From Candidatus Aegiribacteria sp. (GTDB taxonomy: Bacteria; Fermentibacterota; Fermentibacteria; Fermentibacterales; JCC-6), in contig JAUWMQ010000005.1 in the NCBI GenBank assembly GCA_030613065.1, positions 1 through 49,207 of the forward strand: a stretch of 49,207 nt of DNA, in the 5' to 3' direction. The notes under the pieces were generated by a model. The model did not search any database. It was given only the letters and a program-made list of their open reading frames with translations, and had not been told where the DNA came from. Made by a program: the position numbers and the translations under genes. This document shows, piece after piece, positions 2,772 to 30,308 of the stretch (the stretch's first letter is position 1; every line of letters begins with the position of its first letter).

Positions 2772-3193
2772 TCTACTGCTGCGCATTTACTGCATTTCCC
2801 TTCAAGGAAGAAATCCGAATTTACTATTTGAAAGCTGCACGTGTTTTCAACCATTTTAATGAAATCGTCCGGGAGCTTGCAGGAAACCGGGAATCTTTTC
2901 CCACACTTCTCGCATTTGAAGTGGCCATGGTCGGGGTAGAAAGATCTGGAACACCGGTAACGCAGATTACCTTCGAAGCTTCTATCAGGCCTGAGAAAAC
3001 CGATTTGCTCCAGGGAACCGAGACACCGGTGAACTGTTGATATATGAGGACTGCAAGACAGTCTGTCATGAACATCTCTTGCGGAAAGGCCACAGGCACC
3101 ATTAATGAATAGCTCAACCACCTGTTTTTTGAGGGGGGTGATTCTCAGCCCCCTGTCTCTCAGTTTATTCAAGATACCTGCGGAATTCATCAT
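2768..3193 (-). CDS. zur: Fur-family transcriptional repressor, probably Zur
   Basis: RGLRITP...STVHRCL helix-turn-helix, HGHF, two CxxC motifs (CEKC, CSKC); AAGGA RBS before ATG 3193; heads the znuACB operon. The ORF-track extension to 3583 overlaps yggS and is not real. Confidence 0.82.
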   Translation of the reverse strand: MMNSAGILNKLRDRGLRITPLKKQVVELFINGACGLSARDVHDRLSCSPHISTVHRCLGSLEQIGFLRPDRSFEGNLRYRCSRSFYPDHGHFKCEKCGKRFPVSCKLPDDFIKMVENTCSFQIVNSDFFLEGKCSKCAAVE

Positions 3194-27029: not shown

Positions 27030-27818
27030 ATGAGAGTATCAGTGGCATCTCTTATCATGTTGGTTTCTGTTACTTTATACTCAAGCTGTGGTGATTCTGC
27101 TACAGAAATATCCGGTACGCTTCCTGTTGTGACAGGGATTACTGTTGATTCCGTTGCAAGTAAAGGTGATACTATTGTGGTTACCTGGACCGCATTGACC
27201 GGTACCCAGATAGAGGGGTATCTCCTCTGGTCCAGAGTAAAGATTGAAGATCCCTGGGAGTTACTTGAAGTAGTCTATCAGAATACTGGAATCCACATCG
27301 CTGACAGGTCGGCCTACTACACCGTCATGGCTTTCTATGGAGATAACACTTCATCCGATACAGGCTTGTCAGACAATACAAGAACTGAAAGTCTGTCAGA
27401 GACAAGACTGCCGGTTTCGACTGAACCAGTGGGCTTCCGTATTGACCTTGAGGGAGATTCTCTTATTTCCGGTAACCCCTCTTCTCCAGAATTCCATCAG
27501 CAATTCACAGTTGCCGTTGATTCACTCAGCGGAGAGAGGTTCATTTACCCGGGTACTGCTAATCCATGGCCCGGTGGAGCAAAAACGATGGTGTCATCAA
27601 GTGGTGGCTATGTTGCTCCAGCTCCCAATGACAGTATTCTATGGCAGGACAGTATCTCCTACGGTGCTAACTTCTTCCTTGCACTTGAGAGCGGATACTA
27701 CTGCAAGCTTAATGGCTTGGAAATATCCCCCGATACATTAACAGTGCCTGACACTCTGATCATTGATGGCCAGTATCAACCTATCCAAAGTGTCAGGGTG
27801 TTTAATCAGAACAGGTAA
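27030..27818 (+). CDS. Hypothetical lipoprotein
   Basis: GGAGG RBS; lipobox LYSSC; Fn3-like N-terminal beta region (VTWT..., YYTVMA). Confidence 0.7.
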   Translation: MRVSVASLIMLVSVTLYSSCGDSATEISGTLPVVTGITVDSVASKGDTIVVTWTALTGTQIEGYLLWSRVKIEDPWELLEVVYQNTGIHIADRSAYYTVMAFYGDNTSSDTGLSDNTRTESLSETRLPVSTEPVGFRIDLEGDSLISGNPSSPEFHQQFTVAVDSLSGERFIYPGTANPWPGGAKTMVSSSGGYVAPAPNDSILWQDSISYGANFFLALESGYYCKLNGLEISPDTLTVPDTLIIDGQYQPIQSVRVFNQNR

Positions 27819-27929
27819 TCGATTCCACGTGAGGAGTCGGCTTTTCCAACTTCAAGGGATTGATTTGCAGATGGCGAACTGCGTGCTGGTGAGGTAAGGC
27901 TTGCTGAAAATCTTCCAAGTAACTTAAAT

Positions 27930-29330
27930 TTAACATATTGCTACAGCAGGAGATAGGTTTTCATTGATTTCAGACGGAATCAGCGTATATCCCATCTGAG
28001 ATGCCGTTCGCTTCAGGTTCTTCAAGACTCGATCTTTGTACTGGCTTTCATAGTAATCCTGACCCTGTTCAACAAATTCCATTCCGTTTTTCAGCATGCT
28101 GTAAATCAGTCTCGCCAGCTTGTGAGCTGTGGCGGTGATCGCTTTAGGTGATCCGTGCCTTGCCCGCATCCGGCGATGGTACGCTCCTATTGCACTCTTG
28201 GAGTTCGTCACTGCAAAAGCTGACATTCTCAGGGCTAAAGCGGCTCTGTTTGCCGTTCGTTTTGTTTTTTTGCTTAACACTTTTCCACCGGAGACATTCG
28301 TGCCCGGGCTGAGGCCGAGCCATGAGGAAAAATGCTTTTCTGTTTTCCATCGACTCATGTCTGTGCCTATCTCTGAAATTATCTTAAGAGCTGTAACTTC
28401 GCTGATACCGGGTATACTTGTAAGGTCTACTCCGGTTATCCGAAAAAGCTCCTCCCGAACATTGAATGATGGAGCGCTGGCTGACTTTCTGTCTTTGGAG
28501 GGTGGCAGTGAATTGGAGTCTGCATTTGATTCAAATGTATCCAAAAGCTTTGCGATCGCAAGGTCGCATTCATGAATCTTCCCCTGATAGGTCTCGTAAA
28601 GATCCAGAGATTGTTGCAGTGCCAGAATGTATTCATCACGGTAATGACCGTGCAGAGATTCCGATATTTCTTCTTCACTTTTCTTGCATCGCACATCTCT
28701 ATGAACCGCAAGTTTGTCAGGATCCCTTTCTCCATCCAGAATTGCACGGATAATGGTCATACCGGTTTTGCCGGTGATATCGCTGACAACATTGTCGAGC
28801 AACAGATTCATTTGCCGCAGAGCTTTCTGCATATGCTGAATATGAGCACTGGCATACTTTATCAAAGAATCCCTCTGCCGCATATAGGCCCGAAGTGAGG
28901 TAATATGTTCAGGTGGGCGAAAGGCTCCCTGCAGCAATCCGTATGTGTGCAACTGCTGCAGCCACTGACAGTCCAGCACATCACTTTTCCGTCCTGAAAC
29001 ATTCTTAACATTGCGTGCATTTACCAGAAGCACTTCAAGCCCTGACTCCTCAAGAATCTCATATGCCGGAATCCAGTAAATACCGGTTGATTCCATCGCG
29101 ACTGTCTCAACCCCTATTTTAACAAGCCAGGCAGCCATTTTCTTCAGGTCACCGGTGAAGCAGGAAAATGACCGTACAGGTTCTGTATCCAACCCCTCGG
29201 GAACGGCCACATAATGCATCTGCGAACCTATATCTATCCCTGCAGCATAAAGATTAACCTGCTCAAGATGTTTGCTCAGCCTGTTTCTTTTCCGGACAGC
29301 ATTCGGATCAGTCTTCTTCTTGCCTTTCAT
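27930..29330 (-). CDS. IS110-family DEDD recombinase/transposase
   Basis: GIDIGS, VAMESTGIYW, GRKSDVLDC (DEDD RuvC domain); LTSIPGI, WLGLSP...SGGK (Ser of the Tnp domain), ITATAHKLAR; GGAGG RBS before ATG 29330. Confidence 0.95.
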   Translation of the reverse strand: MKGKKKTDPNAVRKRNRLSKHLEQVNLYAAGIDIGSQMHYVAVPEGLDTEPVRSFSCFTGDLKKMAAWLVKIGVETVAMESTGIYWIPAYEILEESGLEVLLVNARNVKNVSGRKSDVLDCQWLQQLHTYGLLQGAFRPPEHITSLRAYMRQRDSLIKYASAHIQHMQKALRQMNLLLDNVVSDITGKTGMTIIRAILDGERDPDKLAVHRDVRCKKSEEEISESLHGHYRDEYILALQQSLDLYETYQGKIHECDLAIAKLLDTFESNADSNSLPPSKDRKSASAPSFNVREELFRITGVDLTSIPGISEVTALKIISEIGTDMSRWKTEKHFSSWLGLSPGTNVSGGKVLSKKTKRTANRAALALRMSAFAVTNSKSAIGAYHRRMRARHGSPKAITATAHKLARLIYSMLKNGMEFVEQGQDYYESQYKDRVLKNLKRTASQMGYTLIPSEINENLSPAVAIC

Positions 29331-29365
29331 CGTACTTTCCTCCATAGTAAGGTGGTTAAATATGG

Positions 29366-29513
29366 GCGTGCAAGGGTGCGGAGTGATCGTAATGCGCACT
29401 CTTCCAAAACGGGATCGCAAAGCGTCACCGATGATGTTGTCGCTCACTCCAGACCACGCTATTTGTCGGGTATAATACGCCAATGATTAGACGGTCTTTG
29501 TACCCCTGCACGC
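29366..29513 (-). ncRNA. Predicted IS110 bridge RNA
   Basis: Outer stem 29366-79/29500-13 encloses two stem-closed loops (29380-86/29444-50 and 29451-55/29493-97) containing segments that match the element junction and the target flanks. Confidence 0.72.
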
Positions 29514-29519
29514 TCTCTA

Positions 29520-29548
29520 AAGATAATCCATACAATGATAAGGCTCAA
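29520..29548 (-). promoter_or_regulatory. Sigma70-like promoter for the bridge RNA/transposase
   Basis: Minus strand TTGAGC-N17-TATCTT; predicted +1 near 29513 coincides with the start of the outer stem. Confidence 0.5.
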
Positions 29549-29644
29549 GTTACTTATAGATGTAGGCTCGTCCGCGGGCTGGGACGCTATTTGAACTTCA
29601 GGAGTGAGTGCTGTTGTTTATTGCCGTCAGACAAGATATTGATT

Positions 29645-29692
29645 TTGACATTGAATTCTGTGGTACCTATAATAGGGTCGTAGAATAGGTAC
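29645..29692 (+). promoter_or_regulatory. Consensus sigma70 promoter with an overlapping operator for the TA operon
   Basis: TTGACA (29645-50)-N17-TATAAT (29668-73); inverted repeat GTACCTAT (29663-70) / ATAGGTAC (29685-92). Confidence 0.75.
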
Positions 29693-29718
29693 TGATAATA
29701 GGGATCGAAAGGGGCCGT

Positions 29719-29952
29719 ATGCTGCAGGCGAAATTCAGTGTAGAAGAAATGCAGGCTGAATTCCTGAGTGAATTCAAGACCTACGGGTTTAAGGACAGGA
29801 GCGCCATGGTCAGAATGGCTATAACTCTTTTCAAGAAGAAAATGGAACTTGAAAGCCTTAAGAAATCTGCTGACCTGTATTCAGAGATCTATTCTCTGAA
29901 TGATGATCTTAAGGAATTGACCGAAACAGCAGTAACTGGATGGCCGGAATGA
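29719..29952 (+). CDS. Antitoxin, ribbon-helix-helix-like
   Basis: 77 aa; GFKDRSAMVRMAI RHH-like helix; acidic C-terminus; ATGA overlap with the toxin. Confidence 0.7.
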   Translation: MLQAKFSVEEMQAEFLSEFKTYGFKDRSAMVRMAITLFKKKMELESLKKSADLYSEIYSLNDDLKELTETAVTGWPE

Positions 29953-30308
29953 CGGTGTTGAAAAGAGGAATGGTTATTGATGTAAATCTTGATCCTTCAA
30001 AGGGTTCGGAAACCGGGAAAATCAGACCCTGTGTAATTGTAACCAATGATATTTACAATGAAAGAGTTCCGGTTATTCAGGTTGTTCCGATTACTGAATG
30101 GAGTGCGAAAAAAGCACGGATAATGACCAATGTCGAAATTCTTCCCTCAGCGGAGAATGGGCTCTCGAAAAAATCAATTGCGGACTGCCTGCAGACACGT
30201 CCAATCGATCATAGTCACAGAATGGTTAGAATTCGCGGGAAACTATCATCTGGCGAAGTAAAGGAAATTAATAAATCACTCAGAATTCTATTTGAACTTC
30301 AGGACTGA
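29949..30308 (+). CDS. mazF: PemK/MazF-family endoribonuclease toxin
   Basis: KRG...VNLDP..GSE.GKIRPCVIVTND..N, VVPIT, NGLSKKS. Confidence 0.92.
   Translation: MTVLKRGMVIDVNLDPSKGSETGKIRPCVIVTNDIYNERVPVIQVVPITEWSAKKARIMTNVEILPSAENGLSKKSIADCLQTRPIDHSHRMVRIRGKLSSGEVKEINKSLRILFELQD

Follow-up and report, generated by a model that had tools for sequence, protein, structure and literature searches.

An IS110-family insertion sequence of Candidatus Aegiribacteria sp. and the bridge RNA probably encoded in its left end

The element, its ends and its recombinase

The stretch of DNA analysed here (the window; 49,207 nucleotides (nt), contig JAUWMQ010000005.1 of the Candidatus Aegiribacteria sp. assembly GCA_030613065.1) carries an intact insertion sequence of the IS110 family at 27914-29586 (1673 bp), which lies on the minus strand and is flanked on both sides by the core dinucleotide CT. 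A preliminary description of the locus had proposed that this element specifies a bridge RNA, four guides of which can be read against the element's own donor and target. We found that three of these guides vary together with the DNA that they would read, and that the fourth belongs to a conserved helix. Taken together, the observations described below make it very probable that the left end (LE) of the element encodes a bridge (seek) RNA which is read in the direction of the recombinase gene, probably from a promoter of its own inside the LE. The element comprises the following main parts.

27914-29586, minus strand: insertion sequence proper, 1673 bp; in the orientation of the recombinase the LE starts at 29586 and the right end (RE) runs to 27914
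27912-27913, no strand assigned: core dinucleotide CT next to the RE, reading AG on the recombinase strand; placed by the sequence and the RE copy
29587-29588, no strand assigned: core dinucleotide CT at the LE junction, placed by the sequence and the LE copies
27930-29330, minus strand: recombinase gene, 466 amino acids (aa) plus stop, with the motifs GIDIG, MESTG, KSDVLD and GLSPGTNVSGG

The junctions in the window read GAAAAT-CT-TCCAAG (27906-27919) and GGGACG-CT-ATTTGA (29581-29594). The same genome contains three further LE copies at contig ends (84-85% identical) and one further RE copy (81%). The LE copies agree up to ...GGGACGCTATT and continue beyond it with TGAACT, TGATAA, TCCTCA and AGCTAT, while in the RE copy the likeness begins at T-CT-T(C/T)CAAG. 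When the LE was searched for in 70 genomes of the phylum, it was present in 10. In addition, contigs joining 27911 to 29590, with TCTC in between, were found in sequencing run X5 (shorter side 194 nt) and, as a weak case, in run X1 (30 nt). Because these contigs skip 27912-29589, another strain lacks the whole 1.67-kb unit. There is no target duplication, each junction has one core dinucleotide, and the empty-site contig agrees with this arrangement to within 2 nt. Thus, the ends of the element are confirmed by the other copies and by the empty-site contig to within about 2 nt. The read depth in X1 was about 8-9.5 in the flanks and 20-24 within the element, which is in line with the presence of several copies. 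Among the relatives, the first base of the core on the recombinase strand was always A and the second G or A; accordingly, on the strand paired by the 3' guides described below the core consists of C or T followed by an invariant T.

Several other arrangements of such elements were observed. In L051 (second model match at 2896-3009) the RE, a single AA core and the LE abut each other (…TTAGG-AA-CCTCTTAAGG…), which gives a circle-like junction, and L034, L035 and L081 contain head-to-tail neighbours in which the junction has one or two extra bases or the second copy has diverged. A second variant of the element, 81-85% identical, interrupts the assembly at four contig ends of G000 (L002-L005: C70:23923-24091, C112:8558-8724, C128:1-140 and C118:5-140); its target arm equals that of the window over 60 nt, and the stretch from the inverted repeat to the outer stem P1 is different.

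The recombinase gene starts with the ATG at 29330, which is preceded by GGAGG (29343-39); the frame as listed, starting from a TTG, was 517 aa long. The recombinase of IS621 has 326 aa, compared with 466 aa here. The domain, family and relative searches and the alignment with ISEc21 were carried out with a 467-aa query, one codon longer than the gene product. Membership of the IS110 family, as had been proposed, was borne out by the Pfam domains PF01548 (residues 31-175, 2.6e-19) and PF02371 (residues 304-385, 4.1e-16) and by the NCBIfam entry NF033542, "IS110 family RNA-guided transposase" (268.4 bits, with the cut-off at 140). The D, E, D..D and SG motifs stood in register with those of the ISEc21 transposase in an end-to-end alignment (22% identity); the assignment of catalytic residues derives from the work on IS621 (Hiraizumi 2024, PMC11208158) and the definition of the G--P----SG motif from Siddiquee 2024 (PMC11187229). 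Relatives were encoded in 594 of the 610 candidate stretches (one genome per species), and the best 80 of these 594 were 49-80% identical and came from many phyla, the closest two being from Fermentibacteraceae-type genomes. The preliminary description was correct as to the length of 466 aa, which it called long. However, lengths of about 300-460 aa have been given for IS110-family recombinases (Durrant 2024, PMC11208160) and of 395-455 aa for transposases of the IS110 subgroup (Siddiquee 2024, PMC11187229). In view of these ranges and of the relatives of this long form in 594 candidate stretches, a length of 466 aa lies at the top of the known range but inside the known kind, and is ordinary for this family.

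A conserved structured RNA upstream of the recombinase gene

The non-coding part of the LE contains the following RNA and promoter features.

29366-29513, minus strand: bridge RNA core, 148 nt, in which the outer stem P1 surrounds a target arm and a donor arm (fold, covariance model R1 and covariation)
29502-29513, minus strand: 5' strand of P1, GCGUGCAGGGGU, pairing with 29377-29366
29366-29377, minus strand: 3' strand of P1, ACCCUUGCACGC (fold and helix search)
29520-29548, minus strand: promoter-like site in the LE with TTGAGC (29548-43), a spacer of 17 nt and TATCTT (29525-20), the latter being a conserved -10-like element

A covariance model, R1, was derived from 15 left ends and matched 82 of the 84 sources, 86 times in all, with every match on the recombinase strand and upstream of a recombinase gene; L021 and L069 were without a match, and in four sources a second match was found, each from an adjacent copy. 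The RNA of the window scored 111 bits against R1. On 75 distinct rows 95.3% of the cells of the structure were paired, and the number of double-change cells was 100 in comparison to 20.6 in shuffles (none of 500 shuffles reached the observed number) and at most 26 in slid controls, although the alignment behind these counts was fitted to R1, which favours the structure. When the segment 29513-29366 was folded by itself, the minimum free energy was -54.1 kcal/mol (z -2.95; none of 200 shuffles was as good) and the fold consisted of P1 and two arms, whereas an earlier fold of the whole LE (260 nt) had reached a z of only -1.26.

RNAalifold applied to MAFFT alignments recovered both arms but missed P1 and the donor arm's outer stem, owing to misalignment of the 3' part. 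P1 was therefore examined by an anchored helix search against mismatched partners. The average longest helix between the element's own strands was 8.1 bp, and a helix of at least 7 bp was found in 64 of 76 distinct elements as compared with 145 of 380 mismatched partners; the strands of P1 occurred in 64 different sequences across those elements. A duplex-energy threshold was uninformative for P1. Thus, the outer stem enclosing both loops, which had been proposed for the window, is supported both by the fold of the window and across the family.

The locus had originally been viewed on the plus strand. An RNA read from that strand could start, for example, from the perfect TATAAT that is present within the RNA region at 29471-29476. 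However, this hexamer lies in a hairpin loop that is variable among relatives and has no -35 partner. Moreover, four helix positions are G-U pairs in 69-75 of the 75 rows and would become C-A on the opposite strand, and therefore the RNA strand is the minus strand in the window; all 86 model matches lie on the recombinase strand. Guides read from the plus strand would also start with the core instead of ending with it, unlike those described for IS621. We therefore consider transcription of the RNA from the plus strand extremely unlikely, and the plus-strand view was abandoned in favour of the recombinase strand.

Upstream of the RNA, TATCTT stands 6 nt before P1 and TTGAGC at the edge of the inverted repeat. 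A TANNNT hexamer preceded the model start by 9-30 nt in 75 of 78 distinct elements, in comparison to 2 of 78 in a control region. The -35 element was seen only in near relatives and was not above controls family-wide, and a promoter scan reported no sigma-70-like site on the minus strand of the LE. Inspection by eye of the joined RE-LE sequence revealed no -10-like hexamer 16-18 nt from the -35-like hexamers of the RE. Since the -10-like element is situated about 60 nt inside the LE, a promoter built at the junction is geometrically excluded for this -10. Hence, an internal promoter just before the outer stem, which had been suggested in place of one formed at the circle junction, is plausible.

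L091 (1591-1694) and L092 (302-401) are copies from related genomes. Their RNA is intact up to and including the target arm, but unrelated sequence has taken the place of the donor arm, beginning with its 5' strand; these are decayed or interrupted elements.

Guides for the target and for the donor ends

The four strings that had been singled out as guides (CTTCCAA at 29401-07, AGCGTC at 29421-26, CTATTTG at 29459-65 and GATT at 29485-88, as written on the plus strand) are all present at these positions. With the RNA read from the minus strand, the segments relevant to recognition of the DNA are as follows.

29459-29465, minus strand: 3' guide of the target arm, CAAAUAG (CTATTTG on the plus strand), equal to the left flank plus core
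29456-29458, minus strand: handshake bases CGU, equal to the first LE bases CGT
29485-29488, minus strand: 5' guide of the target arm, AAUC (GATT on the plus strand), pairing with recombinase-sense G-ATT
29399-29407, minus strand: 3' guide of the donor arm, UUGGAAG (CTTCCAA on the plus strand), with AG, equal to the RE end plus core plus first flank base
29431-29440, minus strand: 5' strand of the donor arm, ACAACAUCAU, with no match to the RE-LE junction; its ACAUC equals LE 24-28
29559-29563, minus strand: LE segment ACATC, equal to the 5' strand of the donor arm (identity permutation test)
29410-29429, minus strand: inner hairpin of the donor arm, containing AGCGTC as helix (pairs with compensatory changes)
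29547-29555, minus strand: left subterminal inverted repeat, AAGTAACTT (LE 32-40)
27917-27925, minus strand: right subterminal inverted repeat, AAGTTACTT, which lies 3 nt away from the end of the RE

The segment CAAAUAG+CGU equals the element's own left flank, core and first LE bases, and the same was observed in all 12 lineages inspected, although their sequences differ. In the window the corresponding 10-mer ACGCTATTTG occurs twice (29456-65 and 29584-93) against 0.08 expected, and none of 100 shuffles reached two. The proposed extension of the match across the junction, in the manner of a handshake, is therefore seen both in the doubled 10-mer of the window and in the 12 lineages. When LE junctions were located without the guide, the three core-proximal flank bases equalled the guide in 10 of 10 copies, which are kin and not independent events. 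Two of these ten copies have altered guides, CAAGUAG with the flank AGT-AG and CCCGUAG with the flank CGT-AG. At the same time, both distal guide bases were fully matched in only 3 of these 10 junctions. Thus, the other copies have the element's ends in common, and their flanks follow the CTATTTG guide proximally, whereas its distal TG is not followed.

The 5' guide of the target arm, AAUC, has the second core base and the right-flank bases 1-3 as its partners. Among 39 distinct guide/site pairs, the paired fractions at flank positions 1-3 were 0.62, 0.56 and 0.64, in comparison to 0.47, 0.32 and 0.45 when flanks were permuted within core type, and none of 2000 permutations reached the observed sum. 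The sites used in this test had been found without that guide. The result supports the GATT guide in spite of its shortness. In addition, mutual information between this guide and the flank was found along the anti-diagonal, and the mutual information between the handshake bases and LE bases 1 and 2 amounted to 0.66 and 0.76, at junctions that were guide-located and hence not independent. The mutual-information tables are confounded by relatedness, and those for the 3' guides are circular because the junctions were located with these guides; we therefore rely on the independently found junctions and on the permutation tests.

In most proteobacterial relatives (L025, L064, L074, L085 and many more) the target 3' guides are UUAAAAAAC(G/A)U. 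Those copies follow runs of A (…TTAAAAAA-C…), where the position of the core is ambiguous by one base.

On the donor side, ten different variants of the RE end were each matched by the donor 3' guide of their own RNA. In the window, TCTTCCAA occurs three times against 2.86 expected; this match is not beyond chance by itself, and it draws its weight from its position and from the relatives. With the ten tracked variants, CTTCCAA (UUGGAAG, 29407-01) stood as a guide.

The same did not apply to AGCGTC. If all four proposed guides read the donor and target at the junctions, then GACGCU (29426-21 in the RNA) would be the second donor guide, and it is indeed complementary to AG-CGTC at the LE junction of this copy. 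However, GACGCU does not lie in an open loop as had been supposed but accounts for five base pairs in the donor arm's inner hairpin, a helix that shows compensatory changes. It also does not track the donor: L028 retains GACGCU although its LE starts with CACTCC, and L010 and L011, the LE of which starts with CGTC, carry GAAGCA in that place. Furthermore, in 51 elements no fixed place in the RNA was complementary to the core plus LE start, and the complementarity of the 5' strand of the donor arm to this sequence was at chance level. The reading with four junction guides thus appears very improbable, and the resemblance of AGCGTC to the junction is a chance match. The word search itself is able to detect such guides, as the identical procedure, when applied to ISEc21, picked out the two target guides as well as the two donor guides at its junctions.

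The 5' strand of the donor arm did show a relation to a different part of the LE. Its identity to the LE segment before the left inverted repeat gave a sum of 109, compared with 85.7 ± 4.6 in permutations, and exceeded all 3000 of them; 8 of 31 distinct sequences shared at least a 5-mer between the two. Neither its identity to the LE start nor its complementarity to that same LE segment rose above chance, and a match to the interior of the RE (ATGTT) did not recur in relatives and was discarded. Candidates for recognition of the donor on the LE side are the conserved LE hairpin, the inverted repeats, and the 5' strand of the donor arm, which at LE 24-28 may pair with the antisense strand.

The RE is 16 nt long. 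The subterminal inverted repeat measures 9 bp in the window and 6-13 bp in 37 of 39 elements, and it is situated at LE position 30-39 in 37 of 39. A hairpin in the LE (perfect stem of at least 5 bp) was present in 26 of 51 elements, compared with 196 of 1020 shuffles. Together with the missing donor guide, this hairpin and these repeats could be taken to suggest that the structured LE is only a leader or regulatory region of the messenger RNA, that the DNA is recognised by protein contacts and that the matches to the flanks reflect a conserved target. For the IS1111-type element ISEc11, a short RNA with target matches alone has been described as enough for movement (Siddiquee 2024, PMC11187229). 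Yet the guides vary jointly with flanks and ends, as seen with the target 3' guide in 12 of 12 lineages and with ten RE variants, the 5' target guide passed its permutation test with sites found independently of the guide, and the mechanism of the family has been established experimentally in the IS621 and seekRNA papers. We consider a leader function as the sole role of the LE very improbable.

We also considered whether the outermost parts of the element (44 nt at the start of the LE and 14 nt at the end of the RE) could be a host repeat that served as target, the inverted repeats being the two halves of it, and rejected this, as the outer junctions match the guides and the empty site lacks these parts. 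Joined end parts of this kind do occur without a recombinase gene between them: in mini-elements of about 52-59 bp, the LE, cut down to its first ~41-44 nt, is joined to the last ~12-14 nt of the RE, with the joint at, or at most 5 nt from, the inverted-repeat palindrome, and their flanks are like those of full copies (xAAT-AG ... AG). They were found at ten full-span places in 7 of the 70 genomes searched, and none in the genome of the window. L104 (1505-1560), L114, L119, L107 and L118 were read in detail, and the others (G048:C128, G047:C60, G021:C47, G016:C129 and G046:C303) are known from the match table only. The mini-elements appear to be non-autonomous derivatives reduced to the end parts.

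Proposed mechanism and comparison with characterised elements

In the mechanism that we favour, the RNA has a three-way structure in which P1 closes the target arm and the donor arm, each arm being a stem that contains an internal loop and an inner hairpin. The target 3' guide CAAAUAG would pair with the strand reading CT-ATTTG, and its CGU extension, once strands have been exchanged, with the first bases of the element itself (handshake). The 5' guide AAUC, which is short, would pair with the other strand over the second core base and three flank bases, and the donor 3' guide UUGGAAG(A) would read the right end and core. Strands of the target and of a circular RE-LE junction would then be exchanged at the CT core by a tetramer of the recombinase (466 aa, DEDD/Ser), and changes in the guides would be expected to redirect the element. 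The mechanism of the family is known; modestly new, to judge from the literature found, are the hybrid layout and, in the donor arm, the odd 5' strand.

Several observations weigh against this reading. The natural flanks follow only the 5 guide-proximal bases of CTATTTG, with the distal TG not kept, and the match of the 5' target guide is only 4 nt long in the window and weaker still in several near relatives. As no fixed place in the RNA reads the core plus LE start, one of the four expected guides is missing. We infer the transcription of the RNA from sequence features; a look-up of RNA runs turned up none containing the sequence, and no Rfam family matched 27500-30000 at E up to 1. The circle junction was not seen in the contigs of runs X1, X2, X4 and X5, although contigs cannot show its absence. 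Finally, the site is indeed empty in another strain, as the preliminary description had assumed, but its allele reads GAAAAT-TCTC-TTTGA and not the predicted GAAAAT-CT-ATTTGA, i.e. it has one extra T, and C replaces A beside the core. Compared with the window, the X5 contig has 11 differing bases among 500 on the left side (about 2% divergence). Strain polymorphism would be the simplest account of the differences beside the core, with a footprint as the alternative.

The element shares with IS621 a DEDD/Ser recombinase, an RNA in the LE upstream of the gene, two arms with internal loops, guides that end at the core, a handshake after the 3' guide and an invariant core T (PMC11208160, PMC11208158). 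The bottom strand is the partner of the 5' guides in IS621, and the top strand, which reads CT, is that of the 3' guides and the handshake (Hiraizumi 2024, PMC11208158). In our element the 3' guides and the handshake are identical to the coding strand and would therefore pair with the CT-reading strand opposite the gene. Thus, the IS621 order (left target and left donor guides, LTG/LDG, on the 5' side; right target and right donor guides, RTG/RDG, on the 3' side) is reversed here, the guide complementary to the coding strand being 5' and the identical one 3', and the core on the coding strand is AG, unlike in IS621. There are further differences: both arms lie within an outer stem, where IS621 has a separate 5' stem-loop; the subterminal inverted repeat measures 9 bp compared with 2-3 bp; the -10-like element is situated some 60 nt into the LE, which rules out formation of a promoter at the circle junction, whereas the IS621 promoter is rebuilt at the RE-LE circle junction; and a 5' donor guide reading the junction is absent, the two guides of the target loop and the donor 3' guide being those supported.

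With ISEc21 (PMC11187229) the element has in common that the RNA is encoded in the upstream non-coding region, and the recombinases align end to end (22% identity), the present one having a longer variable region between the coiled-coil helices and extensions at both termini. The order of the guides in ISEc21 is opposite to that found here (as checked on L102, it begins with the match identical to the left flank, which is followed by the one complementary to the right flank), and both of its donor guides are at the junction, compared with only one here. A reversal of the order between IS1111-type and IS110-type RNAs has been reported (Siddiquee 2024, PMC11187229). As described in the same paper, the IS1111-family elements ISEc11, ISPa11 and ISKpn4 have the top-strand match 5' of the bottom-strand match, as does our element, and IS1111-family elements likewise have subterminal inverted repeats (criterion 7-17 bp) with short terminal extensions. 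In contrast, the RNA of IS1111-family elements is described as downstream and their transposases as 330-350 aa long, whereas here the RNA is upstream (82 of 82 matched sources) and the protein has 466 aa; a few IS1111-type elements are reported to have an upstream non-coding region (Siddiquee 2024, PMC11187229). In a tblastn search, IS110-family genes of enterobacterial plasmids (about 338 aa, subtype not established) matched only residues 304-420. The layout is thus a hybrid, because the RNA is upstream as in the IS110 type and the guide order and repeats are of the IS1111 type.

It is possible, though in our view rather doubtful, that the widespread long-recombinase subfamily represents a distinct and undescribed layout of bridge-RNA element, in which an upstream RNA is combined with guide order and repeats of the IS1111 type, both arms are closed by an outer stem, and the donor loop reads the RE at the junction but the LE about 25 nt inside, beside the inverted repeat, with the hairpin in between. 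As the promoter would then be wholly inside the element, the RNA would be made from integrated copies. Such a layout would provide an evolutionary link between the IS110 and IS1111 groups and would explain the 52-59 bp mini-elements, which retain just these end parts. The literature found, with supplementary trees and figures lying outside that search, contains no description of the long-recombinase form. Bridge RNAs of diverse shapes have been catalogued for 85.7% of the IS110 and 93.0% of the IS1111 entries (Durrant 2024, PMC11208160), and a 2026 preprint presents 86 covariance models over 32,190 RNAs; published catalogues, for example those 86 models, may already contain this subfamily.

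Under the mechanism favoured above, the locus offers no new mechanism but comparative documentation of a large subfamily which mixes traits of both characterised groups: an RNA upstream of the gene is compatible with guide order of the IS1111 type, it probably has its own internal promoter, and one donor side may depend on a subterminal site, hairpin and inverted repeats instead of the junction. This bears on the relation of the IS110 and IS1111 groups and on the minimal ends that a cargo would need. Bridge and seek RNAs are under development for programmable DNA insertion, and their natural diversity sets the guide lengths, geometries and donor requirements.

The element adjoins, just upstream, a probable toxin-antitoxin operon on the plus strand (29719-29952 and 29940-30308). 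The first gene is a 77-aa open reading frame without a Pfam match, and the second, which overlaps it by 13 nt, encodes a 122-aa PemK/MazF-like toxin (5.4e-24). A perfect TTGACA-17-TATAAT promoter at 29645-29673 (plus strand), 57 bp past the element, stands at the head of this gene pair.

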